Source: Botryllus schlosseri (Eukaryota). Taken from it: 64,000 nt of DNA. The notes beneath the pieces are model-generated. The model saw only the letters and a program-made list of their open reading frames with translations. It was not told the DNA's origin and ran no database searches. A program made the translations under genes and the position numbers. Shown piece after piece: positions 22,789-50,049 of this stretch; within the stretch, counting starts at the first letter, position 1; each line of letters opens with the position of its first letter. The stretch is taken from the NCBI GenBank assembly GCA_051294905.1, contig CM119372.1:8868001-8932000 (forward strand), given 5' to 3'.

Positions 22789-25700
22789 AGATTTGGTAGA
22801 GGCAGGCAAATCTTTGACCGCGTTCGCCATGCGATTTTACGAGGAATTGAAGTGCAGATTAGATCGCCAGGTTATTAATGCAGTGAAAATGTGTCCTTGA
22901 CCCTGAAAAGAATCATTATGTTTCAAGAATTCTTCAAACATATATATCTGTGCTTGTTGACTTTGTCTTTTAGATTTGCAGTTTTTTGTGTTGATTTCGT
23001 ATGATAGTTATCTTTATTTTGAGTGCGCTCTGAATAATGAATGCACGATTTATGTATATGCCTTATATTGGGCCGCAGTACCCTTATCGAATGCCAGGCC
23101 AGCCTTCGTACTGCATGCCTTACGTCCAGACAGGTTAGTGTCGAGTAGAGAACTGTTTCCGCCCTATCTAAATCAACTTCTTGTAGATTTAGGGGTCCCG
23201 CTCTACTACGTCAATTCCTATCCTCAGATGCCAGTTATACCATGCGATCCATATGGTTTCAATCAGCAGTCAATGCCCCTAATGCTCCGACCACCATTTC
23301 ACCAGTTTCTACCTCCTCCGCCACCGTTCGCGCAGCAAAACAGTTCTGTAGCTGCCGCCGCGAGATACCCTATTGTACCGGGAAGCAACCAATCGTTGAA
23401 TCGCCAAGTGCCGAATGGTATATACTGGAACACGCATGCCAATAATTTTCCAATGATTCGACTGGCTCTTTAGAAAATGCGCGCGGGTCTAACAGCACCA
23501 AGCCTGGAAAGACGAAGAAGGCGAAATCTGCTAAGCAGGATTCAAACACCGACTGGCACAGCAAGACCGGCACATTGAAAGCGCCCGGCAGTCGCCCGCG
23601 AGCTGATACATCAGTACTCCGTCGCTCAGGTCACAAGAAGGTGAGGATATGAAAATACGTTTTGTCATAAGAACGATATTTGTGTTGGATATCTATCAGC
23701 CCTCGTGAACTGCGGCTTTTCATCAAGCTTAGGCTTGAGTAAGAATATGTATAAGGCGCAGAGTTAGAAGTTGTTGCCTTATCAGCTGATTCTGTGCATA
23801 GGTTCTGTGCCATTCAATTTTGTTTTCAGTAAGGCATACTTCAATCTATCGTTAACAATCCGTTACTGTTTTCGTAGAATAAAACAAGGAAATCTAAAAG
23901 AAAAAAAATTCACTTGGGGCCACGTCCGGCAGCTAGTAAAAATACAAGTGAATTGAGCAGCATCAACACCGACAACACGCCATGTAGGTTTGCTGATAGG
24001 CCTATACCGGAATTGGAAATTGTTTGAAATCAGTCCGCGATTCAGTGTGTTCCGATTCGGCAAACCGAGAAGTCGAATTCGAGGATGAAGACGCAGATTA
24101 CGAAACATGCGAGGAGTTGGAAGAAATGCATCCGGAAACCACTTCTGACCCGATGAATCGTGGACGCTCTCGAGAAAAGGTAAATGGTTTAATATATTAT
24201 ATTGAGTCTTTATACGGATACGTAGAGAGGTGGTTCTCAATTAGGTGGTTCTCAATTTAAAACAAAAATCAATTTAAAACAAACATGTTCAAAACAAGTC
24301 CCTTTTTTAAAACATGTTTGTATTGTCTTTTTTCAAGACGTGACGTCACGAAAATTCAATTAATACGTCACGGTGCATTGACATTGACAATTGAAAATAT
24401 AGGGTAAATACAGCTCCTTTGACGAAATATCTGTACTATTGCTGTTGAATCGACTATATTGAGAGTTCTAACCATCCCATATCGATATACGTCGGCAATA
24501 TTGGTAATTGTCCGTAGGCTTATATACAACATGTTTTTGGAGTGTAGCTACACAATTATGGCATAATTTTACAACTTAAAAAAAAAAAAAAAAGGCCTTC
24601 GTTTTGAACACTGTTTTAAACATGTTCTAAACAATTGTTTTAACACACGGTTTGTTTTAAATGCAACCTATTCTCAATGATGATCGAAAGAAAATTTCAT
24701 TTCATTTCATTGTATGTTACAATTGTATGATGTCTGCCACGAAGACGTCTATTTCTTAACCGAACTGCAGTAAAAGTTGATATCAATGCACGTAAATGCA
24801 GTGTTGAGGTGACTCAAATCATGACTTGACTCGAGTGGCGATTTCTGACTTGACTTGACTCTAGTCTTTTCGCCAAATTGACTTGACTTGGTCGAATCCT
24901 GGGTTTATACTGGTTTCCGCTTACGTTTTCCATGCGGTTAGTTTCATCTAAGGTTGCATTTAAAACAAAAATCAACGTAAAACGAACATGTTTAAAACAC
25001 GACCCTAAACACGTATTTTATTGTTTTTATTTTGTGTTTTTTAGCCCTGACGTCACGAATCCTTGAGTGGCGTCACAGTGGATTGACATTGACAATTTAA
25101 AATATAGGATAAATATGGCTCCTTCGACGAGAAAGGCTTCATACCACTGCCATAGACAGACCAAAAATACATTTAACCGGTACTACATCGGTATGCGACA
25201 TGGGTATGCCGTACGCTCATATAGTCCACTGCATGTTTTTTCCAAAGTATATTTACACAATTACGGCATCATCATACAGCGTTCGAACATAAAAGCATTT
25301 TAAACGAAGTGTTTATAAACACCGTTTGTTTTGGATGAAACCCTAGTTCCATCAGCATAGCAACATAAAAAAAAAACAGCTTCAGCATTTCAGCATTTTA
25401 TTAAATTGTGAGTTACGAAAGAAATACAGTTAAAATCATGATAGGTTTATATCAAATCAGAGTTCATTCTCGTGCTCAGGAACATGAAGGCCTCTGTATA
25501 TATGTACACTGTACAGTCGGGCATTTCAAAAATGACTTTTTCTCAAATCGTATTGGCTACTTGATAAAATTGTTAGGTTACCTAATTTCAGCCTACACAC
25601 AAAATTAGGTTCAATTCCAGCCAGTGGAAGCGGAGTTATTGCCGTCGAAAATTTGGATTTGAATAAAATAGTATTTACGGTGAGCACAACTATAATAAAT

Positions 25701-28700
25701 AAACAAAGAATCGGTCACCGTAAATGCTATTTTATTCAAATCCAAATTTTTCGACGGCAATAACTCCGCTTCCACTGGTTGGAATTGAGCCAGATTTGGT
25801 GAGCATCGTTTCTATAGACAGCCTAACACTTTCATGGGGTGAACATAAAATTTTCAATTTTTTTATTATTCATTTTTATATAATAAATAGAAACTTTCTT
25901 CTCGGCTACTGGCTGGAATTGAACCAAATTTTGTGTGTAGGCTCAAATTAGGTAACCTAACAATTTTATCGAGTAGCCAATACGATTTGAGAAAAAAAGT
26001 CATTTTTGAAGAGCCCTACTGTACAGTGTACGACATACGAACACCAAGCTTGGCTCATTTCGCACGAGACAGTCCTCTTGTAGCATTTTCAGGAATAAAA
26101 ACGTGATGAGAATTTAAATTACGAGCATAGAAACATATCACAGAAAAGATTAGGAGATATTTCCCAATCCGTCTATTTCTGACACATGTAGGACTGTACG
26201 TTTCATAAATTTGTGTATCTTTCTCAGGTGACGTCAAGCTGTTTCTCGTTCCGGATCGCCAAGACGAAATCGTCCAAAGCTGAATTGCCGATATCAACCG
26301 AGACAGACCGCACGCCATTGTTAGCACGATACCCTGCAACGGACGACTATTGGGCGGCTATATCAGGTATGGAGTCGCTATGGAACAGATCCGAGGACAG
26401 TGTCCTATGTTGTACTGGGAAAGAGTGTAAATGCAAAAGGTGCGCGAACACGACGCGAACAGATAAGATGCTGCTTCCGACGCCTCCAGATCTGTGGTGG
26501 GACAGATCGGCTGGTATGGATTTATTCTCGCAGTCGCGAATTCTTCAGAATGCGGACGGGGGTATCCCGCTGAAAGGGAAAAATACATCGGCGGCGTATG
26601 TTGTAGTCGATGCCGCTCACGCGAGCCTCGAAAAAAATTCGACTGCAGGCGAAGAAACTGACAACAAATGCGGCTCTGATCTTACAAGTGGCGCCGTTAC
26701 TTCGGCGCGGAGATTGTTGAGCGTGGACTGGAACTCTATTTCAAATTCCAACACAGAAGACGCCACGAAACAAAGCGGAGGGAAAGAGGTCGGCCAGGTG
26801 CAGAGCATTACAGATATGGACAGTGCGATTGTGGAACGCGGGCCGCTAGCCATGGAGCCGTTCACTATGACCTCCAAGTTGAAAGCGTCTTTGACAGACA
26901 CTTTGCTACGCATCAAGTCTACTTCCGGACTCGAAGGGTCGCCTGTCAATAAACTGACGGAGAGAATTAAGAGGCAGGAGAGGGCTTCGATTAAACCTGG
27001 AGTGAGAGAGTTCTTTCAGACTGCGTTCACTTCGAATGATATAAGCAATTCCAGAGTGAGTGAAGTGACGAGCGTAGATTTTCAAGGCAAAACTTGCAGA
27101 GTGGTTACGAGTGACGCTGTCCAACAGACACAAAACAGCAATGCTTCCAAATCGCAATCGCACTTGCCACCCCAAGAACATGTCACTTCCGCGCATCCCG
27201 AATCGAATGCTCGTCTCAACGCAGAAGTATCGAAAGATAGTCATGGAACAGCCGCCGGATTTGATTATAGCGATGGAAAGATCGAAGGCGTCACGGAGCG
27301 GAATTCAATCCCAGACACGGACGTACAACAAGACGACACGGAGATACCACCGGATAGCATTGAAACCGCGCCTGTGGAGGATCCAACAAAAAAGCGGCCA
27401 ATCGGCGGTTTTCAGTTTCCCAGCTCCGACGAATTGTTTCGGCCGAGAAAAGAAGCCGACAGCTGCACGCCCGAGCTATCCGCCCCGAAATCAACCGTCG
27501 CAACGGCCGAGTTCTACGACATTTCGAAGCCCGTTCCGTTATCGAAAAAATATTCTGATGCGATGATTGAGGCAGTGCCAAGATCACCTGTCAAACTTGA
27601 CAACCTGAGTCGCAAAAAGTCGATGAGTTTGAACGATTTGCGGGACGCTTTAACGAATACCCGTGAAAATCGCGAAGATATAGAACATTCTCGAGTTCAC
27701 GGCAAACCTCCGCTTGGCCGAGTCGTCGGGGTTAATGCTAGGCGTGAAGCAACTTGCGATGACAATGGCGCCGCGAAAAATGGGAATGATGACGTGACAA
27801 AGACAGCGGTGAGTAAGATAGAAAAACCGAAGCGAGCTTGGAAAGCCAGCAACGACAAAACGAAGTACCCGACTGGTATCCCGCTCAGTGGCATGCTCAA
27901 CGATACGATAAGACGAAACTTCCGTCGCACAACCAGCCCAGTCGCTATTTTCCAGGTACACTGTGCAGCTACCGCCGACCCGCGTAAAAATTCGAGTACA
28001 TACTTACGACCTCCATCGATTGATGATTGGTCGGCAGTTATGGTGCAGCCAACACCGGCGGATCAGTCTGCCAGCGTGCAAGCACTTTCGTCTCGAGAGC
28101 AAGGCGAACATGTAGCGGACTGCGATCAATTGCATCAAACTCGTTTCATAGCACTGCCGGTTGTCTTGTACCCGCCTGCCGCTGTTCTAAAGCCTCGCAT
28201 CAGCGAAAAGTCGCGACTCCGGCATCAAGCCATAAAGAGAAGAAATTCGTTCGCCACTCTTCGCGGGGCCTCGATATCAAATAAGAAGTCGCGGAGCAGG
28301 CCTGGCGTGGTGTATAAGAGATACGCGCCCGCGGCGAGCCAAATATCAGGCCCGGTTTTGGCTATCGATAAAACTTACCCTACGTATCGTATATCACCGA
28401 CGCAGCCTGGCAAGGGCGACTCGAAGACAGTCGGCAATTCGCAGGTGCGTGTGTTTTGATGAAATTGTTATCCTGTTAGCACTAGGAAGGGTCAGAAACA
28501 ATAAAAACTCTGCTTTTTCGTAGTACTCGAGTAGATTTTGCCTACTTTTACTACTTCCACTTCTACCTGAAAAGTTTTTGAGTCAAAACTACTCACGGTT
28601 TGCACTTTTTAATTTCGAAAATAGGGAGTAGTATTTGGATTGGTTCGCATCTAATTTATGAGTGAAGTGATTATAGCAACCTCGTGAAGTGGTCCTTGTA

Positions 28701-31700
28701 ATACGTCAGCTGAATATAATTTTTAAGATCCTGTCTATTGGTACAGTGGTAGTCGTACACTGGTGCTGTAGTTACGAAGATTGATCTGCAATTTTGAAAG
28801 TAGTCACCGACGGTTTACTGCTACACAGAGTATGCGAACCCGGGACGAGATCTATACTTTTTGAGACTACACTTGCTCGATAAGTTTTGAGACCTTCCAT
28901 TTTCTTCTACTTCAAGTAGTTGTGACGAGTCTTGGAGATTACTACTTCTACTTGTGATTGAGCAGAAAATTACAACGATGACAGCTTCGACCACATCTTA
29001 ATGGCGCATTAATTGGACGAAACTTGTTTGTAGGCGCGGGCTACGGAGAATGCGACTGCTGTGGAATTGTCGCGACGCGTCAGAAGAACCGAGGTTGAAG
29101 GGGTAACTAGAGCTTTGGACGCTAAATCTGGCGCTTCTCAAGAGCAAAGATATCCGGAGTCGAGTAAGTTACCCTGTGGCCGGAGGCTATATTCTAGTTA
29201 TCCGTCTCACAATAGTTCCGGGTATAACATCAGTCGGGAGTTTGAATTTGGATAACAGGCGCAGGCCTAGAATACTTGCCTTTTACTTACTTGGAAATCG
29301 CTACTCGTAGAACTTCTACTTATACGACGTTACTTCTATCACTACTTGAGTACCAACAGTGACTATACTCTGACCATCGCCTCTATAAATAGATTACATC
29401 ACATTACCAGTAATGCATCTTGTGCAACTGTACCGTATTATACGTATACTATAGCACGCGCCAGACGGGTCCAATTTACTAGGGTTGCAGTCAAAACAGA
29501 TGGTTGCTTAAAAAGACCTTGATAAAAAAAATTCAAGATGTGTAATTATGCTATAACCGTGTAAATACTTTCCGAAAACAAGTTGTATGAGCCTACAGAC
29601 GACGATTACCACCCGATTTAGCCGACGTATACGATACGTTATGATTTGGAACCCTCGAAATAGTCGGTTCAACAGCTATAGTACGTATAGATATAGATCA
29701 TTGGTACGGAATGAATGTTGTGATGATGATGACCGCCGACCACAAAACTGCTGCAAGACGATGTACAGTCCTGGTTAAAAATATTTTGGGTCCGTATATG
29801 ACAGAGTTCGGAAGCCTATTTCGCAAAAGTTATATTTGCCCTATATTTTCAATTGTGAATATCAATCCACTATGACGTCACCATTGAATATGTTTGACGT
29901 CGTGGCTCGAAAAAAAACGTGATGTATACAAGGGCCACGTTTTAAATATGTTTGTTTTAAATTGATTTTTGTTTCAAACACAACTCTACAATTAACCGTC
30001 TATTCCAATTCATTTAGAAGATAAATTTCCAGTACAACCATTATTGTATCGACTTGCTTTTGCTCTTCAAGTCGTATTGCTTTATTCAGATAAGGAGCAC
30101 GAAAGTGCGATAGGAGAGCAATCCCCGACTTGGCCATTTACAGCTGCGTTAGACACGGAATTTGCCGAGGTATGAACTGTACCGCGTTGCTTTGCTCTCT
30201 CTGTCGAACTATTTGATTTCAACACGGCGAAGTCATTGCGTTTCTGTCGCAAACCGTCACTGGAGTCGATTGTTGAATTGTAACGGCGTTCACATTTTTA
30301 GGACCTAGCCGTCATCCCCGAAGAGGCTGTGGCAACTAACGTGGACACTAGCGGTACGTTCCCGATTGAGTTATGAAGTCTTTTGCAGTGTAAGGGTAAC
30401 GTTACTTTTGGTTATACTCTATCCAGCGAGCGGAAAGTCGCGAAGCTTCTTGAAGCGGTTCATGAAGAGGAAAAGCTGGACGAAAAAGTTCTCTGTGACA
30501 AAGGACGCTACTGCCAGTCTGTCTTCCCAGCACGGTTTGGACGCGAAGCTGCAATACCAGCCGGAAAAGAAACCGACGCGACAAGGTTGGAGTGTATGCA
30601 TATATATTGAATGTTGCAGCAACAGAAGATAATGACAATAAAAACTCAGATTGTATTGAACACAGGTTTGTATTTGCGACTACTGTCGCGTAATTGGTAG
30701 TCACAACAGTCTCGCTCATCAATAGCGTCGATAGGGATATACCGACCGTATCAACAAAGCGCGGTCCGGCCCCGATCCAACTCCGACCGTATCCTAGGTT
30801 TACCATATTCTGGAAATCTGAAAAGATGACACCTTTTCAAATGTTCAGGCTCGCGAAATAGCTGCCGGCGCGTTACTTCAGTGCTGGTTTACTGTATCTC
30901 AGTCGAATTTTGCCCTATATTTAACCGAAATTCTCAAAAAAAGGACAAAATCTCAAAAGAAGAGCGCATTTGAGCGTTTTCCGAGAACACTTCCAAAAAA
31001 ATCTAAAAAGAGGACAAATCATCTTAGAAAAGGACGTATGGTAACCCTACCGTATCCGGAAAATATGAATCCGGGCCCGGCCAAAAATGAAGCAAAAAAA
31101 TCCGATCGGGTCTCCAGTCCGACCTTTTTCCACGCCCTGCTCTGTGCATATCGGAGATGAGCGGATTTTCCTCTTTTTCGACTTTTTTTTGAAGTGCGTC
31201 CTCGCAAGACGCCCAAATGTTCTCTTTATTGCGATTTAGTCCTCGATATTGAGAATTTTGGTTGAATAATGGGCAAAATTCGAGATACAGTAAATCAGCG
31301 CTGAAGTAACGCCCCGGCTGCTATTTCGGGAGCTGGGCTTGGAAGTTGACCTTTTCTTTTTAGTCAACCGACCATGAAGTGCAAAAAGTTTTTCATTTTT
31401 TCAGGATTTTTCTCTGGTATTGCAAGTCTGAAAATTTGAAAAAGTTTCCTCTTTTCCGATTTCCAAAATTGCACGAAAACATAACCCAACACACCCCTGG
31501 GATATATATATATCCATAAGATTTGCATTGGTCTCCATCGTTTTATTCATTGGAAGGCGGAAGGGTGTGAAATTTGTCACACGATAGGGTGAAAATCAGC
31601 GACAAAATACCGGTTTTTCGTTCATGTAGTAGATAGTGTTTCGATCAAACCGCTTGGCCTAGAGCAAGTAGGCTAAGCGAAATGCCTAAATAATGAAGGA

Positions 31701-34700
31701 CCGCTCTTTTCTCGATACTTGTTCCTCGCAATTTCAGGCAAGCTGCGTTCTAATTTTGCGTCCAAGAAAAATCGATTGCTCGGTCGCGGTAGCAAATCTC
31801 GACTGCAAGGTCTCTCCTCATTCACCAACGAAGACGTCAACGGAAATTCCTCCGAGTTTGCAGACTCGGACAACGCAAATTCTCGTAGCGTTGCAGAGGG
31901 AAGCGCGAAGAGACCCGACAATACCGGTAAGCGATTACCGAAAGAAGATAAGACTGTGAAACACGCGCTTTACCGACCGACGCTGGTCTGTATGGCGTCT
32001 ATCGAAACGCCCAGGCCGTCTCAGGCGCGCCGACTCCAGCAAGTGACGGGAACTGTCGGACGCGACTCGCAGTTATCAGGTGAAATCCGAAGTCGATTTG
32101 ATGCGTTGCGGCGGAGAAGGCGTATGTGAAAAACAGAAGTAATCGAAGTAGTCATTGCTGGTAGTGTATTAGAAATAGAAGTAATGTCGGGAATTTCTAT
32201 TTAGTACAGAAATAACGATATCCAAAACAACGAGAAGACGCGATGTGAAACTAAAACATGAAGGTCAAAAGAGTAGCCTAATAGGCCTACTCGAGTAATT
32301 TCAAAGTAGATATGGTCCAGGGTAGGATAGGATATGGTCCAGGATAGGTAGGATTTGGTAGTTGATCGGAAGCGACTATACTTTTGAAGCTGAAGGGTGT
32401 ATCTTCGCGAATAACATAAAATGGCCGACGACTCTTCGAGTATATAGATGATATTTTCTCGTGAATTCAGTTACCGTGGTACAGGTCCTGTTTTGCCCAT
32501 CAGTTGATAACTAGTTACCCATAAAAGTGATGCAAACACACCCTCGTCTACTTTCTTCTTTACAAAATCAAAAGTCAAGTAGTTGAGCGTAAAGCACTCA
32601 TAGGCAGCAGCAGTAGAAGTAGTGTAAACATTTAACCACACGGAAAGTACTGCAAGTACGCAAAACCCATTCGAGTACTCCGAAAATGTAGACGTACTTT
32701 ATTGATGATCAGTTTGATGAAAAAGTGAATTAGCTGAATCAGTCAAAATTTGATTTAATATTTCAGGAAAAGGGAGTGGTTATCGTGAAGTCGACGGATC
32801 GGGTCCTATGCCAGCCCCGATCATGCGTGGGCGCGAGAAGTCCGCAACCAGTACCCCAGGTGCTCGCATAAATTCTGAGACTGCACTGTAAAAATTATTC
32901 TTGTAAAATTACAGGAAAAAATATGGTATACTCGATTACTAGTTTACAGTATTTTTCTTGTAATTCGTTACAAGCTGACAAGCTAAATCTAGTAAACTCA
33001 GTACAAGATATATCTTGTAACTCTCTTTTTCTCTCTCTTATTATACCCAAATCTTGCACCTGAACTGGCAGAAAGACCCAATGCATTCGGCGGCCATGAT
33101 TGTTCACAAAACTATATAGCGAAAAGGCTCATTTATTTAAAGCCGATTAACAGCAGCAGATCAGCAGGAAATATACAACAGGCTCAAGCACAGTATGAAA
33201 ATCAACAGCAGCATGTATAAAAAGAAATTGTGCAAAAAATATTTGCAATACTTAGCCTGCAGCAGACCAAGCATGCTCCACAGGAGTGCAGCTTGGCTTG
33301 ACAAGCACTCATGTAGTTCCTAAAGTATCATTAGGTCCAGTACAAACCTATTTTCTACTTTACAACGTCAGAATTGTCAAGTAATGAAGTATGCTGAAAA
33401 TATAATCACTTGAGGCCAAATCTACTTCAGCACTCCCAAAAAAGCAAAACTATTTACACTTACCATTGTATATCAATGATCAAATGAATTTAAAAACTGC
33501 AAATCAATTTGTTTCACACATTGAAGCGACCGCAGACGGCATATGCAGCCCTTTGATTTTTGCAATGCAGATGGTCAAGAAATGTAGAGTCTTATCCACA
33601 CCACGTGCGAACTGGATATTGAATACCCAATGTATTGACAGAATGAGAGCTAAAGCATGTGTGAAATTTACTACGTCATTTATCACTAGCCCGTCGAAGT
33701 GCACCATCCAATTGGTTTGTCGAGTGTCAAGATGTATAACTGGGTGCGGTGATTCTGGATTATCCTGAAAAAAGAGGGCACACAACTGTATACTGAAAGG
33801 CAAAGAGAGTATGAACTTATATAGCCAATAATACTATCAGAGTAATAATGGCTGATGTATTAGGTCAAAATTATGACTATGACAGCACTTATACCAGGGG
33901 TACCTTTTCAGCCAAAGGGACCCAAGAGATTTAGGAACCATTGAGTGGGCCACTTGAATGTTAATGACCTTTCTTAAGTCGTCCGATAGGAGCCAACCGA
34001 ATTAGGTAACATTAAAAATAAGACTTACATTTTACATTATGACATGAGAACTCTGTGGGCATTCATGTCGTGATCGCGCTAGGTGGGAAATTTTTCAAAA
34101 ACAATGAATGAATTCGATAAATAAATATGTTACTTGCAAATATTGAAGGTTGCCTTTGTATACCACTGGGTTAATTTTGCAAGGACATGATTATTCGGCG
34201 TTTAGATATGGCAATATCGAAGGTTTCGGTGAACATCCCTCCGTCCTATTGTGAAAAGTTTCATCGTCGACGATCTCGATGCGAGCACACAAGCGAAGTC
34301 GCATGTTGGACGACACAACGTTATCTCCTAATTGCGAATATATAGTTGGACTCAATTCTGTAAGTGACGCGTATTTATAATTTTCAGGAGGGCTCCAATA
34401 CTAAATGCAAAAAATCGAGTGACAATAAATCATGCGAAGTGCCAAGAAAAATATCAATATCATTTTCATTTGGCCATCGGGTCAGCCCGAGTACGAGTAA
34501 TTCTAATAAAGGTCGCGTCCTAGTCTAACTCACAAATTTCAGTCACGAATCGTCTATAAGCATATTACTGGAAACGACTATCGTCTAAGGGTCAGGGTTT
34601 ATCATCATGAATTGGAAATGTGGCGAAATAGTGAATCTTCCACTGCATGGGCGCGGATAGTGAAGTTTGATAAATAGTTTCAGGCTTTCGGAGCAATTTA

Positions 34701-37700
34701 AGAGCGAATTTTCACTTTAAAACTTGAAAAGATACATGTGGCACTTATATATTGTAAAATTATTGAAAATCTAAAATGTCGTCGCGGCCGCACAAAATGA
34801 TTTGGCGGGCCGCGTGTTTGAGACCTCTGATCTAGACCATTGTTAATCAGCTTCATTTCTTCCAATAGCTGAAACATTATCAGTTACCGTTAAACAGAAA
34901 TCAAACCAATGATATTGCTTCTTACCCAATATGAATTTCTGAGAAGGGGATACTCCACAAGAATGTCAGCAGTTGGCATGTTCCCGTCTTCTATATCTAA
35001 CCGACGCCTTTTGAAAGTGGCTTTCATTGCTTTCATAAGCTTTGCCTTGGCTGGGTTAGATGAACTTGATTCCGATAACATGATTGACTTATGTTCGGCG
35101 AAGCTTTCCTCATTGTTCGAAGATTCTCCGACCTGAAATTTTTAATTAATATATGAATCAGCGGTTCCCGACCGACAAGCCACGAAAATAGTAATTTCCT
35201 ACTTCGTTAGCAGGAAGACCAGAACTTCGGGGTTTCTTGCATCGAGGGCTGCTCGTGTCGGATTCTTCAGTATGGAGCCGTCTCCGTGGACCAGGTCTTC
35301 CATAATTTATTCTATTTGCGATGAGAACCGGATCGTCTGGATTTTTTTACTTTCCGACGTTCGTTAAAAATTTTGTGATCGAGTTTCTTTTTCCAAGCGT
35401 GCTAAAATGTTACGGATTTTAGAGAGTGTAGCACAGGGGTGGGCAAACTTTTGAGCTCGGGGGCCGCATTCAACATCTGAATCCATTCGCGGGCCGTCAT
35501 ATCACAAAACGCACCCAGGATGCTAAACAACTTAACGGGTAGTTTGATGGCATGGAAGGTTACGACTGTGGATGAGAGATTTTAAAATATGTAATTGAGA
35601 CTAAATACAGAGCAATAACTATCAATGGGATGTAAATCGCGCGAAGTGCAAAAATTTTTTTCAGTTGAGCTCAGCTTCGCGCCCCCATTCAGATGCTTGC
35701 ACGCCCCCACGGGCGTGCCCACCAGTTTGAGAACCACTGTCTTAGAATTATCGTGGTGAAATATACTAAGAAAAATTTAATCAAGTCCCTGCATTAATTC
35801 GATTTTTTTGTACGCATTTTATCAATATTTTTAAAAAGTTTCTTTAGACTCTCGCGGGCCGCACAGAACGGCGTAGTTTGCCCATCCCTGGTGTAGCACT
35901 ACCATACTTCAAGCTTCAAAACTCACCCATGCAGGAAGATAATGACCTTCATCTGCCAAGCTTGATCTCAGAACTTTATATTCTTGCACTAGAGCTGTAC
36001 ATACCAGTGTTCTCGTATACGGTGGCACGTCAAGTCTGAATGAAAAGAGGACGAAAGTTACGTAGTCAAGAAGCTGAATGCACCAAAATTGGTATCGGGT
36101 CATCTCCAGTATTTTCATTCAGTATATCGTGAGTACAGAGGACTATGGTTGTCACAAAGCGTTAGTCTGTGAATAAGGACGTAAAAGGACGTAATAGAAC
36201 CGACCTGATCGTGTGCATGGCCCAAAATTATGCCCTTTGTGACCCATCCCACACGTTGAAAAACGCTGCACTCGAATATAGATCACTTTAACAGCCAATA
36301 CATACCCAAAAGTGTTTCGTTAGATCGTGGAACAGATGGTCCACAATTGCTTTTTGACTCCAGTTTTTCCACCTCGTTGTGCAGATAAGCAGGAAGGCAC
36401 ACCTTATACTTGCCGTCAGACCATCTTTGAGGCATTTTAGTACATTCTTCAGCATCCATCAATGGCGTATCAGTTATAGGTGTAGAGGGCTCCAGATCAT
36501 TCATGAATGATGAAGCATCAACGCCTTGTTCTGAATTTCGCAGACCACTGCACATATCTCCTGCAATCAAAATATCACTTATGAGACAAAATTCTGGTTC
36601 CCAAAGGAAGCGCTAGCTACAAACAAGGCGACTGGGTGGGGGGGGGGGGGTATAAATGTTAAAATAATTGATAATAATAAATTCAAATTAAAAATCTAAA
36701 TATTGATTGACTTCTCCATTCTCAAAGTATTCGGCTGTAAGATAACGTTGCGCAACACGACTACATTTAAACGCCGGAACTAGAAAGCTATACTTAGCTG
36801 TCAGTGTTTATATTCTTGATTATACTAAGTATAGCTTTCTAGTTCCGGCATTAAAATGTAGTCGTGACGGTGTATATCAGTGTTCCCAAATACATTCTTA
36901 CACAATGTGTAAGTGACATTCACAATTACAAATTCAAAACAACGCCATACCTGTCAGTGTTCATATTCTTGATTATACTATGGCGTGGTTTGTAATTTGA
37001 ATTTGTTCAGCGTCTGTTTCAAGGTAAAACTTTTGGTCTCCACCCTAAATGTCACTTACATTCTAGTCTTCACATCCCAAGTGTTGCAACCAGACTAATA
37101 AAATTTTAGGTAGGCCTTGCAAGTTTACAATCTGGGCAATCCATTTTTGATAATATTAATTTCGAAAATAACCTCGCGGGCCACTCAAAACCTTCTCGCG
37201 GGCTACATGTGGCCCACGGGCCACGGGTTGGCCGGTCCTGCAGTAGGTGACATAAAACTTACTATTCGCCTGCTCTTCAGTCAATGATACATCCACATTA
37301 GTGACATTACTGGTGTAATTTGAATTACGAACACCAGCACCAAGCAAATCTGTCACTTTCGAAAATTCTGCAAGACAAAAATATCAAGTAACGAAGCATG
37401 TATATTATGGTAATTGTATAACCATGAGACTAAATTACCTGATTTTTTTTTCACTCAATTTCAAAATATCGCCACTGCGTAGTTCCACTTCAGAATCAAA
37501 TTCAGCCCAGCCAAATACTTTGTCATGGTACTCAATGTTGGCATTGTCAGCGGGAACTTCAGGAAATTTATGTAATACAGCAGTTTTCACTTCTAATACA
37601 GAGTTTACTCTTTACTCTAAACACTTTTGAACAGTCACCATAGGTCACCTTCAACTTTAACTGTGCTTCAGCGTTAGCCATAGCAATCAAGACTATTTCA

Positions 37701-39628
37701 ATAACCTGAAATAAATCAAATCACAAATATTGATCAGTTATATACGCCGCGACGTAACCTCATCAGGTTAATGTCATTGATTACATATATATCTGCTGCG
37801 GTTCATGATACATCAAGTCTGTAGGACGAAAAACACGAACGCCATCTTCTTTAACAGAGTAACTATGAAAGTGTTTGATAAACTGAATAGACTTTATCAA
37901 TTTAGAACAAAAGAAGCACTCGGCATTGACAAACTATATATACTCAATTCTACAAAGTGTTAGTTCATCAGCAGTTTTCTCAATGGCTGGATCAGCCACT
38001 CGCGTTCGCGCCGAGATGGGCGGATATAATATTGTAAAATCCAAATCCTGTTACGAATTCGAGATTGAAATCCAAGTCCAAATCAATAAAAGGTAGGCAT
38101 CTGATCCGAATAACACGTTGAAGTGTAAAGTTATGTGACATTTCAAGTTCATTTCTACATATATTGATCGTAAAATTAATCTAAATTCGATATCCATTGT
38201 TCTTGAATCAGATAAAAATTATTAATTGCGATTATTTGAAATCGAAATCCAAATCCTTATTCGTATTGATCTCGCGCCTTTTTGATAAACCGCTCAACCA
38301 AAACCGGCGAATTTATTTTGTGCAAACAGGATGAATTGGGAGTTTATATTGAAATATAATGACCAAAAGGATGATAATGAAAAATAGTAACATTGGAATC
38401 GCATCGTATTTTGTGTCTTGTGCATTTTTCTATTGCCGGATATGATGTCTGGGTGTTTTTGAACAACGTTTCAACTCACATGTCATAGGGGCTTGTCAGG
38501 GGTGTGTTCGAACTGCGTTAACACTCGGACATCATGTCTGAGGCGTGACTGGAGTAAATTCGGACTGCGTTGTCTATTGAACATCATGGTAGGGATGTGT
38601 TCGGACTGCGTTATGACACTCGAGCATCATGTCTGGGACACATTTAGGGCATGTCTGGGGTGTGTTCGGCCTGTATTGACACTCGGATATCATGTCTGAG
38701 GCTTGTCTGGAGATAGGTTCGGACCACGTTGTTAATCACCCATCATGTCAGGGGGTATTTGTAGCGCGGTGCACACTCGAACATCATGTCTGGGACATGT
38801 CAGCGCATGTCGACGGGGTGGGGGGGGGGCGGTGTTCGAGCTTCGTTGACACTCGGACATCATGACTGATGCATGTCTGAAACAGGTTCGGACTGCGATG
38901 TCTATCGAACATCATGTTTGGGATGTGTTTGGACTGCGTTTTTACATTTGAGCATCTTGTCTGGGTCATGTCTAGGGCATGTCTGGGGTGTGTTGGGCCT
39001 GTATTGACACTAGGACATCATGTCTGAGGCATGTCTGGAGATAGGTTCGGACTGCGTTGTCAATCGAACATCATGTCAGGGGTGTGTTCGAACTGTTGTT
39101 GACACTCGAACATCATGTCTGGGACATGTCTGGGGTGTGTTCGAAATGCGTTGACAGTAAGACATCATGTCTGAGGCATGTCTGGAGTAAGTTCGAACTG
39201 CGTTTTCGATCGCACATCATGTCGGGGACATGTCTGGGGCATGTCGGGGGGCGTGTGCGAACTGTGTTGACACTCGGACATCGTGTCTGGGCATGTCTGT
39301 GGTGTGTTATGGTGTCTGGGGTGTGTTATCGTGTCTGTGACGAATCTTGAGTGAGTACAGACTGCTATTTTTGTTCATTCTTCTTGCAGAAAATATAAAC
39401 AATTTACAAGCATAATTACAAGCACCGACCTATGACAGCTTGTTATATGCTTGCATTTGGCATTTACAAGCTCGATCGAGCTTGTATCAAGCATTTATTA
39501 GCTCGTTACAAGCTATTTTACAAGAATTATTTTTACAGTGTGGTGATGTCTTGGAAAACTCGGACGTCCGATCCATGACTACTATGTTGTGTAGCACTAA
39601 AATTGCGGAAACTGACAACGGTGCATAG
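22789..39628 (+). CDS. Large multi-exon Ser/Lys/Arg/Pro-rich protein of unknown function. Exons ~22789-22870, 23187-23640, 23878-24179, 26228-28444, 29034-29163, 30090-30169, 30302-30353, 30427-30585, 31739-32121 and a last exon 32767-32883 + 39543-39628 split by a transposon; 5' end unresolved
   Basis: Consecutive GT-AG junctions are phase-compatible, including a 2.2-kb open exon. Stop TAG ends at 39628 and AATAAA is at 39721. Two apparent 1-nt deletions in T runs (~23447, ~24023). No recognisable domain. Confidence 0.7.
25517..26018. mobile_element. Second copy of the fold-back MITE (left arm internally deleted)
   Basis: Near-identical to 1086-1749; TSD ctgtacag at 25509-25516 and 26019-26026. 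Confidence 0.9.
33504..37681 (-). pseudogene. Spliced SAMD3-like / EnSpm accessory protein gene inside the CACTA element, with frameshifts in exon 1
   Basis: Exon peptides: MANAEAQLKLKVTYGDCSKVFRV...IEYHDKVFGWAEFDSEVELRSGDILKL (37681-37439); LDVPPYTRTLVCTALVQEYKVLRSS...PAW|HAWKKKLDHKIFNERRK; LMKAMKATFKRRRLDIEDGNMPTADILVEYPLL; FTHALALILSIHWVFNIQFARGVDKTLHFL. The motif order matches SAMD3-like proteins as I recall them. A 7-bp duplication (agagtaa x2, minus strand, ~37605-37618) breaks exon 1. Confidence 0.65.
35434..35890. mobile_element. Charlie-like hAT MITE nested in an intron of the CACTA cargo gene
   Basis: TIR caggggtgggcaaact...agtttgcccatccctg; TSD gtgtagca; shorter relative of 48987-50049. 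Confidence 0.88.
38440..39335. repeat. Subterminal degenerate tandem array (ACATCATGTCTG / GACACTCG / GTTCGGACTGCGTT units of ~33-45 bp)
   Basis: More than 15 recurrences of acatcatgtc separated by alternating related linkers, lying ~200 bp inside the right TIR. Confidence 0.85.
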
Positions 39629-40170
39629 ATCTTTTGCTTTTCATTTGATGTTATGCTAGCGTTTTTGTCGACTTTGAGATTTTTCCGTTATGTCTTGTAT
39701 CACTGTTTGACCGTTTCATGAAATAAATTTTGTATAACACTCATGCTTCTGTCGATCACTGTTGACTGTGTATGTGGACGTGGGAGTTCAGGAGATTTAA
39801 GCGGAAATGGAGAATTCGGTCTTCAATATATCACGTGGCCACGAAATATGATGAGAATCTACTACATCGTTTGAATACGGAGTGAAGCCGATTGATGTGA
39901 ATTGCATCGTTTAGTTCTATCGACGAGCGCACCTGGACGTTGTCGTTATCGCTACACCATGTTTTGCCACTATGGGGGTCTCTATAGTGTCGCAGCAATT
40001 ACCTAAAGACTGAAGTGTGCAGGTCGAGAAACTTCATACGGAGACTCTAAACTCAACGCAAACGATTTGAAACAACTTGTGTTGTACTGGATTGTTGCGG
40101 AATTATCAACGGTTAATATCCGTTAGCGAGAACTTCATAGAGAATCGCTGCTGACCACCACCTTGTACAC

Positions 40171-40783
40171 TAGGGCTGTTCAAAAATAACTTTTTTTCCC
40201 CGGATTCCAGCCATTCACTGATTAAATTGTCAGGTTACCCTAAAAAACGCTGCACACCAAATTTGGTTCAATTCCGACAAGTATAGGACTCCGCAGATCC
40301 AATTAAAATTTTTAATTTATTAGGGTAAATTGAAAAAAAAAAAAATTTCAAGTTTTTCTGCCAACCCCATGAAATAATTGTTGAGCTGTCTTCAAAGACC
40401 ATGCAAAACAAATTTGACGCAATTCCGACCAGTAGAAGCGGAGTTATGTGAGTTTTTCGATGATAATCGTCGGATTATCCTAGATCGGTGGATAATCCGA
40501 GAATCATCAACGCAAAACTCACATAACTCCGCTTCTACTGGTCGGAATTGAGTCAAATTTGTTCTGCATGATCTTCGAAGACAGCTCAACAATTTCATGG
40601 GGTTGGCAGAAAATATTTTTTTTTCATTTTTCCCTAATAAATTAATTTTTTTATTTGGATCTGAGGAGTCCTATACTTGTCGAAATTGAACCAAATTTTG
40701 TGTGCAGCGTTTTTTAGGGTAACCTGACAATTTAATAAGTGAATGGCTGGAATCCGGAAAAAAGTTATTTTTGAACAGCCCTA
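40171..40783. mobile_element. Fold-back hAT-type MITE, diverged sister subfamily of 1086-1749
   Basis: Termini tagggctgttcaaaaataac...gttatttttgaacagcccta, palindromic along its whole length; TSD ttgtacac at 40163-40170 and 40784-40791. Confidence 0.9.
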
Positions 40784-42080
40784 TTGTACACGTAGCGTAC
40801 AGTGCTATTGAAATTAACATACAACCCATACATAATTACTGTAGTGACTAACATTCATTAAACTACGTAATTATAGACAGTAAGCTTGTACTAGCGTGAG
40901 TCGAGGTGACCTGCAGATCATTTTATCAGTTACAGCTTTACAACAGGGTTCTTGGCATTCAGTTGAATATTTGTGCGTAACATTGTTTATGTAACCCAGC
41001 AGTGGGCTTTTGAGACAAAGAAAACTACGGTATTTCGTTGAGCCATAACACGGGCATCATCTTGTGGGGAAACCTATGTCATTGTCCCAAATATATAGTA
41101 ATCTATTATCTTTGGAGTTCTTTATGTACGTAGCTCATACAGTGTCACTATAGAGATTGTATGATGGAGTGACGACTGATTTAAATGCCTAATTAATATT
41201 CATCCGCAACATATTTTGTTTGCGTGGTTTTTCAGCAATTATCTTGTAAAAATGGATATTTATGGTATTTTTGCCCATAATACTATAAATATGAGATATT
41301 ATACCGGTATTAGTGCATTGATATACCGAAATATCTATATAAGTTGAACTACTCTATTTACACTGCGCGCAATAATATTTTCAACTCCCTTTAGATAGGT
41401 CACGCTCCGCTTTGCGGAGGGAGCTACCCATTGTTACGTGTACCATTAATAATCCCACATGGAATTCACACGGTGGAAAGTTGAGTGTTTGGTTGGTTTA
41501 ATGCATGCTTATCGATGGGAATGAGTCGGTGTATTGGAGGTTGAATACTTATAACGGACTCGGTGACTAATTGGACGTCTTAATATGTTTGGCCTGATTA
41601 GTGAATATCTTGGATACTTGCGTGACAGTCTTGCGTTTGTTGCCGTACGAAGCGATGAATATACCGGTATATAATCGCTGCACAATGCGCACGGTCGGTG
41701 AATACCAGCGATGATTTATGATATAATAGCTATTATAGTGGCGTATTATATGATTATAGAAGATAACAATAATAGGGCAGGCGATGAAAATGAAACGGCA
41801 TTTCGTTGCAGGCGAAGTGGGTATGCCATACCATGGTCCTTCTGGAAGGCGTCATTCAGCAGAATCTGTATGTATTTCAACCTGCCGACGAGAAAATATA
41901 AGTCACTTACCGTACTATTGGAGGACATTGATGTGATACTATAGAATTAGCGAGCTATCTTCATGTACTGTTCCGGTATGGTAATTGTTATTTGATTAGC
42001 AAAACGGAAATAAAATTCTGAGTATTATGCTTTCACAGAAATTCTGATTCCTTCATAACCGATACTTTTTCGTAAAAGTT

Positions 42081-42698
42081 ATGGCCGAAGAATCATTGTG
42101 GGAGGATTGGGAATCCATCACCGAGGAGGAAATTTCCCAATGCTTTGAAGGATTGGATGAGTGGAGTGGAATAAGTTGTGACGTCTGTGAAGCCATATTT
42201 CCCACCGTAAGGGAACTCAAGAAGCACGGGAAAGTGCATAAGCTCCCGTCACCAACTGAGCAAATTGACATCGATCGAATAGTGGACATTTTGAAGATTG
42301 CTTGCCGTAATTGTCATTCTATTTCCAGGTGTGGACCACGATTTGAGGAATTGGATTTAAATCTTATTGTTCCACTTGTCAAACGCTTGAATGCTGTGTT
42401 CTGTGACGTTGGTACTGATGGCATTTATCAATACTACTCCAACATTTGCCAGCAGGCAAGCAACCTTCTTGGACTGCAGCATCAGCTTCTTGCTGCATCT
42501 TTGCTCGTGAAGATTGTTGATGCACTTGTTCACCAAGCTGAGGAAAAAGTTTTCACTGCAAGAATGTCTGGTATCAATAGCAGGGAATCGGGGGGGTATA
42601 TTGGTATATTGTACCAAATCTGGAATATTTTTGTGCCTCACTGTCTTTGGCAACTCTTTTCTTGGAAAAGGTATCTTCCTTTCTTTCTATATGAATAA
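42081..42698 (+). CDS. C2H2 zinc-finger ORF carried by the P-like element (3' end probably truncated)
   Basis: CDVCEAIFPTVRELKKHGKVH is a canonical C-x2-C-x3-F-x5-L-x2-H-x3-H finger, preceded by an acidic N-terminus. Confidence 0.6.
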   Translation: MAEESLWEDWESITEEEISQCFEGLDEWSGISCDVCEAIFPTVRELKKHGKVHKLPSPTEQIDIDRIVDILKIACRNCHSISRCGPRFEELDLNLIVPLVKRLNAVFCDVGTDGIYQYYSNICQQASNLLGLQHQLLAASLLVKIVDALVHQAEEKVFTARMSGINSRESGGYIGILYQIWNIFVPHCLWQLFSWKRYLPFFLYE

Positions 42699-42817
42699 AT
42701 ATATCAATTGGAATCGTTTGGTGCATTGGTTTCTTGATCTGAGTGAGAGATAGCCTACCCTGCATACCTTTATGATTGTGCTACAGCCTACCCTGCATAC
42801 CTTTATGATTGTGCTAC

Positions 42818-43191
42818 ATCTTTCAGGCAAATTTAGCTTAGGCAGAGCTCCCACTTTCAGTTGCTTTCTGGTTTTGAGCTGACGAATGATGTCGCTCTCA
42901 AAATAATTTTCGCGGATTGCGGCTCTATTATAAATTACACTGTTAATTCTGATGAAGTTGAGACAGCTGCTTTACTTACGTCTCCTTATGGAGCAACGTC
43001 TTGATACGATCTCCTTTTGAGGGGTCCCTGATGGAAAGAAGGAGGCTGGCCATTGCTGCGTGCTGCTTCTGGGCCGCTTCATTCCTTAACAGCTCTGGTC
43101 TTCGTACCGTGAATAAGGACCTCTTACGAGATTGATCACTACGCGGAATGTTCACATAGGTACATCCAGGGATAGCGCAGTTTTTGGCCAT
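42818..43191 (-). pseudogene. Decayed THAP domain (N-terminus of a P-type transposase), exons 43191-42980 and 42924-~42818
   Basis: MAKNCAIPGC...RSLFTV...KET|AAIRENYFESDII...KQLKVGALPKLNLP. The C-x4-C start and AVP-like (ALP) end are present, but the third Cys and the His read R and Y. GT-AG intron in phase. Confidence 0.7.
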
Positions 43192-46100
43192 AATTGCCGC
43201 GGAGGATCTATTATTTTTAACTACTAAAGACGCGAAATGTACAACGGGATATAAGACAATGCGATGTAGCCTAGTGAACAGAAAAGAAGATGTCAAAACG
43301 AACAAGTACAGTCTTCCAATGTAACATAGGCCTAATGCCCGATGAAACAGTGTACGATATTGATCTTTTGGATGTAGTGATAATCTTTTCGTCGCTCTCT
43401 TTCATCCGCTTTCCGTGTAGTCTATTCGTTTTTTTCATCGGTTGCTTATGCACAGAAAATAGTTTGGGCAGTTTTGTATTGGTATCAGCGGCCACTCAGT
43501 TACCGCATAAAGCCTTTTATCAATTATAGCATTGTCTACGAGTTTACGGGATTCGGCCGCGGAGAGTTATCGCTGAATAAGGCATTGCGGGAAATTGATT
43601 TTAAACGTGTTCTGGGTGGAGGCCAGTTGTGAAATTTTTATAGTGAGAACATATTGATGCTTCCTCGTAACATGCAAAATTTGAAACGTCTAGCTAGAAT
43701 ATTTCCACCCTTTCTCGGCGGTCAAATTCGTCCCTGTATTTCCGAAATCGCCTATACTTTTACATGTAAAATAGGACAATCGGACTCTCGCGAATGGAAT
43801 TTTACTCCGCAAAGTCAAGCGTGACGGATCTAAACTTAGAACAATGGGTCGTCGCTCCATCCTACAGTCTCTATAGTGTCACCAACGCTCCAGCTTTATG
43901 AGATAAATTTGGTGACCTGGTCAGAATCTTATCGTGGGATTTTCCACTGATACTGGTTAAAATCAGCAAACTACGATTCGTTTGTGTATACTCCCATTAT
44001 CGCATTGCGGAGCCGAACGGAGGGCGTGTCTTTAAGACAGAGATATCTAGACAAGATGTCCCTGCTTTGAGAAAACGGGTCACTGGTACATTCAAACCGC
44101 ATTACTGGTGTATTGCGTCATCCTTTGTTATTCTTTTAACTAATCAAAACCGTAGGTGCTTGGACGATGTTCTAAACATCATGAAGTCTATTCTCTCATC
44201 TCTAATGCGGTACGTAAAAGTATACGGTAAATGAAAGCAGTTATTCATCCCACTAAGCAAGAATGGTTGACATAGCGATGTAACCGTCCCACTGAACCAC
44301 AGCTCATGACCTAATGAATTGATGAAATATGATTTACTGGACCTCCTTCCTGAAGCATTTATCATCATTGAATATATATAGCTGCCAATGGTGCAAACAC
44401 ACCAAATTGTGTTGAGTGACCTATGGAGATATGTTGAGCATGCATACTTGAATATACAATCCTTAATCTCTCGAATATAACATGGCCTCTCCAACTCCAG
44501 GTGGCAGCACCTAGTTGTATCTGACAAAGCAAAGTGATAGTTTTCTTTTCACTTGTGGTTCAGAAACGTTAGATCTATACAACTTGGAGATTAGTCAGAT
44601 TACCTTTCCCTTTTCACCTCTATTTGTGCTCATACTGTTGTACGGTAACAAGTATAGTCCAGGGAAATGTGATTTATCACAATGTAGTACATGTTCCATT
44701 CTTCAAGCATCAACCACGTTTCTTAATATGGATGAATCAATATTACACCATTTTTTATTGTCGATGAACTGAGCAAGTAGAACTGATCTCGTTTCAGTCA
44801 ACATCCCATGATATGGCGAGATAACCTTTTCTTCCTCGGCTGCCATTCTGTGGAACAATCTTTCAGTTGCTATCAGATTATCTGACTCGCTATATGTTTT
44901 CAAGCCCAAAATCAAATCCATTTCATTCACATGGAGCGTTTGAACTGCAGTAGTGTTCATTCTGCCTGACAACTATGCACTACGTCTTTTGCATATTGTT
45001 TACTTATATTTTATTGCCTCTTGTGTACAGCCCCCGTGTGTATTAATGATATATTTTTATATTATGTGCTCTATAAATTATTGTATTTATTATATAAAAT
45101 TATCTTGTTTGTAAGGATTTTTCATGTTAAACTGTAGCATATCTTCAAGGACTAGGAAGGGTGATAAATTTGTAGATTGACAATTACCCTGAATACTGTT
45201 TCCAGAGTTCTTGGCACAGATTAGTTTTTTATGAAGTATCTTTACTTTAGGAACAACAATTACTGAGCAATTCGTTCAATTAAACATATATTGTGAGTTG
45301 TGTGAATCTGTGTGCTATCTTGCTTAACCCTTCTTCAATTGTTGCACGACTACGACCATTACTCTTTATCCCCTCAGATAATTCTTCATGCCTGCTGTAG
45401 GTGAATTGTCACTATGCCTTGTATTACGGTATTTTGATTTTATGGTCCTTGATCAAGGGTAGGGGTGAAGTATTGCAAAACGCCCAATGTTGCTATAGAC
45501 TACAGTTTGCTCATGGGGAATACCCTACAACTCTCGTTAAAATCAGTCTTCGGCATTAGGTCTGCGGCGTAGCCTTGGTGCACGACTTTCGCTGTGGTTG
45601 ACATTTGACAAAATGTGTAAGCTAATCGATATTAGCCTCGTGACTTCATATCTGAACTTGACATGTAATGACATAGAAAACTTGTATAACTTCTAATTCT
45701 GTATTGCACGAGTAGGCATGTATTCTTAAGACCGGTTCTTGGTGAAACAAATATTTAAAGTCTACGACCACTGTTCTAATGCTATGAAATACGCTGCTGT
45801 TTAGCAATTTCATCTAGAATTGTAGTTGAAGCATGCAATTTACACTTCACTGTTCCTGTATCATAATCTCATGAATAGCCTACTTTTCAAAGGACCATAA
45901 ACCTTCCGTATTGCTAATGAAGATGGACTGTCCATATTTTAGTATTAACACCATGAGGTAATTAGTGCAAGACTCGGTCAATATTGTTCTGCATAGAAAT
46001 AATTTACATCAGGTTAGAAATTTATAGAAGTAGTTAGGGTCTTGATTTCAGTGCAACATATTTACCGATAAACCTATTCTTTTTTTACCTTCTTAGAGTG

Positions 46101-46235
46101 AATATAGATATTTGCAGCTGATTGTATTTAGGACCAATGATCTTACCAAGTGTCATGAATTATGATCATTTATGTTTCAGCTTTATCAATCATAAATAAA
46201 TAACCCGGTCATTACATCGTGTGTGACCTGTAACA

Positions 46236-48986: not shown

Positions 48987-50049
48987 CAGGGGTGGGCAAA
49001 CTTTTGAGCTCGCGGGCCGCATTCAATATCTGAATCCTTTCGCGGGCCGCACTATATAAAATTAGGATTATAAACCAAAACGCTATACTGATATTTGATT
49101 ATAAAGTGACGACATGGAGATAATATAATATATGTGTTTATTTAAAAAAGCCAAACATTGTTTTGATGATATCGTACATGCGTCAGAAACATATAGTGGC
49201 GAGATTTCATAGGCTGGCGGACCTCAATAACCAATTTGTCAAAAATATAGAGATGAAAGTCGGTTGGCCCGATTCTTGAAACAGGATTGAAATTTAAATC
49301 TGTGAGCAGCGATCTGTTCATAGATTTACTAATTCCACTTTTAATTCAGTCCCGGGACACACAATGCTGACAGCATCATAGCCATGTTAGCTCCAAACAC
49401 GCTTCTACTATGTGTAGATAAAATATAAATACCCCATTCTGTGTATACAGACAACGAATCTACCTAAGGCACGCCCGAATCGTTTTTATAAGCACATCAC
49501 TGAAATAATTAAAAATGAAGTGGCCGATCTGAAATCCCACTGGTGATTCAAATTATGTCAATTTTGTTGCAGCTATGCCGCTGTGATATTAAGTATGTGC
49601 CTCAGATCAGTGGTTCTCAAACTTTTCAAGACACGCCCCCCCCCCCCTTATGATGGTGAAAGATTTCGCGCCCCCTTATCGTCATATCACAAAACGCAAC
49701 CAGGATGGTGACAAACCTAACTGGTAGTTTGATGGCATGGAAGGTTACGACTGTAGATGAGAGATTTTTTAATATGTCATTCAGAGTAAATACAGAGTAA
49801 TAAGTAGCCTATAAATTGGTCGTCAATCGCGCGGAGCGCGAAAAAAATTTCAGTCGAGCTCAGCTTCGCGCGCCTCTTCAGAAGCACTGTCTTAAAATTA
49901 TCATGATGAAATGCACTAAGAAAAAGTTGATCAAGTCCCTGCATTAATTCGATTTTTAGTACGCATTTTATCAATATTTTTAATAAGTTTATTTAGACTC
50001 TCGCGGGCCGCACAGAACGGTGTTGCGGGCCGTAGTTTGCCCACCCCTG
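48987..50049. mobile_element. Charlie-like hAT MITE (composite, with an internal cagtggttctcaa terminus)
   Basis: TIR caggggtgggcaaact...agtttgcccacccctg; TSD ctctaacg on both sides. Confidence 0.88.

Follow-up and report, generated by a model that had tools for sequence, protein, structure and literature searches.

A non-autonomous EnSpm-type transposon in the probable last coding exon of a Botryllus schlosseri gene

Results

A 64,000-nucleotide stretch of the Botryllus schlosseri genome (assembly GCA_051294905.1, contig CM119372.1, positions 8,868,001 to 8,932,000 of the forward strand; below, this whole stretch is called the window and supplies all coordinates) contains a transposon of 6,657 bp between positions 32884 and 39540. 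The element lies on the minus strand, i.e., its own gene is opposite in direction to a host gene whose parts are found on both sides of it. We conclude that it is probably a transposase-less copy of an active two-gene family of the CMC-EnSpm type, inserted in the last coding exon of the host gene. With the element present, the host frame ends as SETAL* at a TAA codon (32889-32891) located inside the left terminal inverted repeat (TIR), while removal of 32884-39542 leads to 28 further codons that end with a TAG stop (39626-39628). Both the SETAL* end and the restoration of the frame had been proposed in a preliminary description of the window, and both were obtained again when recomputed.

Termini and Class of the Element

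The left TIR (32884-32909), which begins with CACTG, and the right TIR (39515-39540) are identical at 25 of 26 positions, and the termini read CACTG..CAGTG. A TG dinucleotide is present immediately outside of both ends (32882-32883 and 39541-39542, plus strand) and constitutes the target site duplication (TSD). In the 64 kb, CACTGTAAAA is found a single time, as is its reverse complement, and these occurrences are the two element ends. The interval 32884-39542, initially given as the element, thus corresponds to the element plus one copy of the TSD.

The CMC/CMCT group (EnSpm, Mirage, Chapaev, Transib) is defined, in the description provided by PMC12730594, by CA..TG ends and TSDs of 2-5 bp. 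The element has 5′-CA..TG-3′ termini with TIRs and a TG on both sides (a 2-bp match alone is expected by chance in ca. 1 of 16 cases). Subterminal repeated motifs, a feature of CACTA/EnSpm transposons, are present at both ends in the form of TACAAG/CTTGTA clusters (five copies at 32900-33019 on the left and six at 39405-39524 on the right) and an array of 52-bp repeats. Eleven of the 41 TACAAG/CTTGTA copies in the window are located within 150 bp of the two ends, where ca. 0.2 would be expected. In plant CACTA elements, the TSD is 3 bp, and strictly defined members carry CACTA termini; here, the ends are CACTG and the TSD is 2 bp. Thus, of the CACTA/EnSpm assignment made initially, the EnSpm type stands and strict CACTA does not.

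The transposase of the group is of the DDE type, its motifs being C(2)C and H(3-4)H; the element contains no long open reading frame (ORF), and its scanned pieces gave no Pfam match. This absence is as expected for a deletion derivative. No Rfam matches were found in 30000-41000. Judged by its termini and TSD, the element appears to be a non-autonomous transposon of the CMC-EnSpm type.

The Internal Gene, the Internal Break and Nested Inserts

The element carries a multi-exon gene of its own on the minus strand (33504-37681), with an ATG at 37681, a stop at 33504 and an AATAAA at 33132-33137. At least eight acceptors could be placed, with exons starting at 37705, 37367, 36560, 36035, 35401, 35132, 34868 and 33764. 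A frame at 34388-34140 was considered as an additional exon and left out, because a repeat of high copy number (depth 21,859 at 34315) covers part of it. At least four lesions disrupt the gene. One exon contains a perfect 7-nt tandem duplication (37605-37618), a stop accompanied by a change of frame lies near 36285, the frame also changes within an A-run near 35345, and a hAT-like end is located at 34829. The 7-nt duplication could be the footprint of an excised miniature inverted-repeat transposable element (MITE). One complete nested MITE of the hAT type, with both ends and an 8-bp TSD, resides in an intron of this gene (35434-35890), and pieces related to it are found at 48987-49049 and 49680-50049. 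Three more hAT-like ends (34829, 35739, 37240) have no matching TSD; of the nested MITEs claimed at the outset, a single one is borne out as a complete copy.

Four of the 24 listed runs (X1, X5, X21 and X23) were compared with the region 26100-40150. Four bins in the element interior were covered 8.9-15.9 times (X1) and 7.7-14.2 times (X5) as deeply as seven single-copy bins (median). Since summing contig depth does not yield a true copy number, these values should be read only as "of the order of ten". In the RNA run X23, one-stranded reads were found on 33135-33603 (105x) and on 37356-38293 (29-84x). Since they bear the letters of other copies (297 of 297 reads at 33248 and 242 of 242 at 37906), these reads come from other copies of the family. 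If the X23 library was made by 3′ droplet chemistry, which we take to be the case, the read strand is that of the internal gene.

The last exon of the internal gene has 16 relatives at E ≤ 0.001, most of them short unnamed proteins, and three of the 16 are repetitive-looking or uninspected. Nine were looked up: one is named "hypothetical protein", and none has a SAMD3 name or is otherwise informative. Atlas matches were likewise to a "hypothetical protein"; these are weak, their scores of 0.97 being accompanied by low recognition (1702). The same exon had no relatives among 54 longer-protein candidates, no viral locus (0 of 17), no solved structure in PDB below E 0.2 and no Pfam match. Relatives of two exons of the gene are present, in preserved order, on the JGI contig L001; neither L001 nor L002 has a recognisable transposase or TIR.

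The preliminary description had viewed this gene as broken cargo and the element as a pre-decayed unit probably moved in trans. On this view, the gene would be a captured host gene, as in a Pack-type element with a single-copy source gene in the host, and the entire unit with its MITEs and lesions would have moved in already decayed. The presence of four or more lesions and of multiple nested ends in a copy only ca. 1.5% diverged from its family would be accounted for in this way, and defective copies of the family do multiply, as evident from the high depth of a joint at which 1,224 bp are skipped (345.8 in X5 and 22.8 in X1). This joint marks a deletion subfamily seen in X1 and X5, in which the DNA between 35256 and 36481 is missing and 10 other letters are in place. 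However, the internal gene is amplified to the same extent as other parts of the interior and is covered by reads from other copies, and nothing among its 16 relatives points to a single host source gene. We therefore regard this combined view as unlikely; movement in a decayed state may, by itself, have occurred. The gene is indeed broken, but it does not behave as cargo: its amplification together with the element, its coverage by reads of other copies and the two-exon relatives found elsewhere point to a second (helper) gene belonging to the element itself. In CACTA/EnSpm transposons, the product of such a second gene binds the subterminal repeats (the role of TnpA), as the helper might do here. 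We presume that it is "SAMD3-like", a label confirmed by none of the matches.

A candidate site of a deleted transposase gene is the internal break at 37983/37984 (minus strand). A deep family contig from X1 (depth 179) matches the element only from 37984 rightwards, and since its first 85 letters there differ, other copies must carry something else at this position. The transposase gene was probably deleted at this site, and the X23 peak at 37906-37935 may correspond to its 3′ end in intact copies.

The Last Exon of the Host Gene

The probable last exon of the host gene begins at 32767 after TTTCAG, in a phase that fits the phase-1 donor at 32122, and is split by the element into a 5′ part (32767-32883) and a 3′ part comprising 28 codons and the TAG (39543-39628). 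A probable native 3′ untranslated region (UTR) follows (39629-39730), with an AATAAA at 39722-39727; the signal had been noticed before, one position off, at 39721. Upstream, eight plus-strand exons were assembled (23186-23417, 23474-23640, 26228-28444, 29034-29163, 30090-30169, 30302-30353, 30427-30585 and 31738-32121); they belong to no Pfam family, and the 5′ end of the gene is untraced. Joined through GT-AG sites to both parts of the last exon, they form a ten-piece chain that is open for 1,206 codons only when the element is removed, and the other frames of the chain hit early stops. The exons of the chain were hand-picked for phase fit. Among 8,000 candidates scored against the 2.2-kb exon 26228-28444, one proved to be a relative, with 36% identity over 93% of the length of the exon, and therefore a host gene does exist at this place. 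The host gene is probably lineage-specific. As for the pieces of the helper gene, no Pfam match was found for those of the host gene, and a 24-nt probe from the right flank matched nothing in metagenome contigs.

The coding character of the 28-codon tail was evaluated in several ways. An open run of this length is expected by chance with a frequency of 0.25, and an AATAAA within 120 nt of the stop with a frequency of 0.10; each is weak alone. The in-frame codon score of the tail was matched by 3.2% of 3,000 random stop-free frames, and its other two frames scored negative; the score of the 5′ half of the exon is less clear (13%). The G+C content is 0.45 up to the stop of the tail and 0.31 beyond it.

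One can also imagine that the element was inserted at an exon-intron boundary, so that the GT at 39543 would be a donor in the empty allele, the 28-codon tail would be fortuitous and the gene would continue downstream. The empty site does read as a donor-like CTG/GT (score 3.9 with a small matrix built from this window), an open run like that of the tail arises by chance rather often, as stated above, and no RNA was seen on the host exons. The score is, however, below those of the ten correctly placed training donors (4.7-9.1; the eleventh, misplaced, scored 2.2), no obvious further host exon was seen in 39730-46200 by eye and in the ORF list, and the codon score, the drop in G+C content at the stop and the AATAAA all fit a terminal exon. 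We thus find a boundary insertion distinctly unlikely and believe that 32767-32883 and 39543-39628 very probably are the last coding exon.

Filled and Empty Alleles

Six single-copy pieces from X1 had no differences from the window, and hence X1 is not independent of it, being probably its source. One X1 contig (record 5, 31427-32913, 0 differences) contains the left junction and 30 letters at the left end of the element, through the TIR. X5 is a different sample from a different study. Its record 16 (655 letters) matches the window at 39541-40026, and the remaining 170 letters extend leftwards without following the TIR; the orientation of this record was deduced from record 8 of X1, a contig that extends past the end of the compared region. 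The match ends at 39541, the first base of the right TG, exactly where an empty allele must stop, while a filled one would go on for ca. 30 letters more. This strongly suggests that X5 carries the empty allele and that the insertion segregates. The joined empty-site form itself, which had been proposed as a check, was looked for among joints ranked by support, a ranking dominated by repeats; it is not among the best 15 of 355, the part of the ranking that was covered. Thus, what speaks for the empty site is the boundary of the X5 contig at TG. In X1, a second haplotype with the letters of X5 is present at 26630-26754 (depth 4.2 of 12.2), and the right-flank contig ends at 39563 without entering the TIR. 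These observations are only suggestive of X1 being heterozygous for the insertion.

Divergence values were obtained from the best 16 of 34,819 pieces at a match threshold of 90%, gaps being left uncounted. Between the element and other contigs of its family, 20 of 1,359 letters differ (1.5%, three pieces); between X5 and the window, 135 of 4,296 letters do so in seven flank pieces of single-copy DNA (3.1%; Fisher p = 0.0008 for the comparison). By this measure, the element copy would be younger than what is typical of allele divergence here, in agreement with a segregating insertion. In the big coding exon, X5 and the window differ by 3.4-4.4% (26122-28116), a very high allelic divergence. The suggestion of a recent, possibly polymorphic insertion is thus supported by the contig boundary and by divergence, but not by the similarity of the TIRs on which it had been based: TIR identity was rejected as a measure of age, for it cannot date an insertion. 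That the insertion is fixed or old, the short C-terminus being now normal and the end of the X5 contig due to another rearrangement, is very improbable: the absence of the joint from the best 15 and the nested MITEs, which hint at some age, agree with it, but the X5 match stops exactly at the first TG base rather than running on as at the X1 left end, and the copies are less diverged than the alleles.

Several points weigh against the reading of a transposase-less EnSpm-type copy in a host last exon, in addition to the rough copy number and the joint absent from the best 15 of 355 mentioned above. The element has no transposase that would prove its superfamily. The openness of the host chain is partly circular, its exons having been picked for phase fit. 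No full-length or C-terminal orthologue of the host gene was found, and exon 31740-32120 matched none of 661 candidates. In the big host exon, 10 of the 13 listed X5 variants change an amino acid, and no constraint is visible. RNA depth in X23 was 0 on bins 26100-28913 and 31728-32665 (ca. 3% of the run; this is not evidence of a silent gene), and X21 (organism B) gave six reads, which are uninformative and likewise no evidence of a silent host gene. Finally, the 170 leftward letters of X5 record 16 are known only as non-TIR, and the record has one gap, the position of which may be in the 28-codon tail.

Proposed Mechanism and Effect on the Host Transcript

The history of the insertion can be envisioned as follows. 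An earlier internal deletion at 37983/37984 would have taken out the transposase gene and left the second ORF (the helper), which is now broken. Intact copies of the family would supply transposase and helper in trans, with the TIRs and subterminal motifs acting as cis signals, and cut-and-paste transposition into the TG of the last coding exon would have duplicated this dinucleotide. In the filled allele, the last 28 of ca. 1,200 residues of the host protein would be replaced by two.

The mRNA of the filled allele may end inside the element, where the first plus-strand AATAAA is at 34120. Alternatively, it may be spliced from internal donor-like sites to a plus-strand acceptor-like site in the right TIR (39525-39538, ending at 39538), which scored 7.9 compared with 4.0-12.1 for training acceptors. 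An exon junction far downstream of a stop codon invites nonsense-mediated decay, a fate to which splicing to the right TIR could expose the transcript, since the resulting junction would be a long way past the new stop. Six strong plus-strand donor-like sites (score 9.1) are present in the array at 38450-39330. By the symmetry of the TIRs, any insertion of the family brings an acceptor-like site in either orientation. A clean TIR-to-TIR splice-out of the element was considered and rejected: the donor in the left TIR scored −0.2 (rank 260 of 413), and such splicing would not preserve the frame.

The Subterminal Array

Upstream of the element's gene, at 38450-39330, there is a subterminal tandem array of ca. 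52-bp units with a 158-bp higher-order period. A p53 response element consists of two RRRCWWGYYY half-sites separated by a spacer of 0-13, as given in the account of PMC3485254. The array, overlooked in the preliminary description in this respect, holds 8 of the 22 exact half-sites of this type in the window. In several of its units, a distance of 11 bp separates two CATG-type cores, which produces full sites with 1-2 mismatches (spacer 1), none of them perfect. Shuffled versions of the array contained a mean of 0.15 half-sites, a comparison to be read with the caution that tandem copies are not independent; a single unit would contain a half-site by chance in 1.4% of cases and the two-core form in 0.01%, the pattern having been picked post hoc.

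The simpler reading is that the array is a motif bound by proteins of the element itself. It is far less plausible that the array would serve as a p53-family sensor through which damage or stress switches on the EnSpm family, or p53 silences it, via the eight repeated sites. Repeat-like DNA in an intron of the host gene also contains, at 24281, a perfect p53-type motif made of two half-sites with a spacer of 1, and further half-sites are present in the same DNA at 24310, 24618 and 24984 (24281-24319, 24984-24993).

Other Features of the Window

An intronless ORF of 630 codons (46227-48119, plus strand) contains an OTU protease domain (PF02338, E 5e-17) and is possibly a retrocopy; we take it to be OTUD5-like. 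On the minus strand, an ORF at 12681-13529, presumably IAP-like, has a terminal C3HC4 RING finger (PF13920), and another, intronless one at 51561-52457, which we assume to be TMEM98-like, has a membrane-like segment and a GCIP_C match below the cutoff. At 42048-43401, a C2H2-like ORF on the plus strand faces a THAP-like start on the minus strand, with a 33-bp tandem duplication at 42752-42818; by eye, this locus looks like another decayed transposon, and it gave no Pfam match. A family of large hairpin MITEs, with arms of up to 295 nt at 96%, is represented at 1086-1728, 25537-26018 and 40194-40765.

Discussion

Among published cases, the zebrafish ichabod allele, in which an EnSpm-N49/N49B hybrid resides in ctnnb2, comes nearest. 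According to the description in PMC13189230, that element has CACTC ends and a 2-bp TSD and is located in the last exon. The two elements are thus both non-autonomous members of the CMC-EnSpm type with CACT-A-run TIRs, a 2-bp TSD and a last-exon position, and the zebrafish one was moved by an autonomous partner (PMC13189230). EnSpm-N49/N49B is, however, 2,469 bp long, has a 15-bp TIR and lies in a 3′ UTR, and destabilisation of the transcript was assayed (PMC13189230), while the Botryllus element is 6,657 bp long, has a 26-bp TIR, interrupts coding sequence and retains a broken helper, and its effect on the transcript is a prediction.

In maize En/Spm, as outlined in PMC2613891, the transposase ORF is in intron 1 of the second gene, and deletion derivatives are moved in trans. 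The likenesses to the Botryllus element are an apparent two-gene design, subterminal repeats as cis elements and the existence of defective derivatives (PMC2613891); unlike En/Spm, the Botryllus element ends in CACTG rather than CACTA, and its helper is at most a putative counterpart of TnpA. The SmTRC1/TRC elements resemble it as animal members of the CACTA superfamily with 2-bp flanking direct repeats, but differ in that TRC TIRs begin with CCC, as stated in PMC1636069, rather than CACTG. The zebrafish EnSpm-N6_DR is another non-autonomous EnSpm-type element bearing RRRCWWGYYY sites; in the account of PMC3485254, it has two full p53 sites in 346 bp, the function of which was tested. The Botryllus array, in contrast, has eight exact half-sites in tandem and no perfect full site, and any binding of p53 to it is hypothetical.

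We view the insertion as an ordinary variant and not as a new mechanism: it is probably segregating and would clip a short tail off a gene. It would matter more if the array were bound by p53, in which case every new copy would set a p53-responsive block beside a host gene. The literature searched contained no report linking "SAMD3-like" genes with animal EnSpm elements (Repbase entries may already describe helper genes of this kind); if the helper gene is what we presume it to be, the insertion adds one example of this link. The insertion also serves as a marker of recent activity of this EnSpm-type family, and it offers a natural allele pair for learning how such insertions alter mRNA ends.

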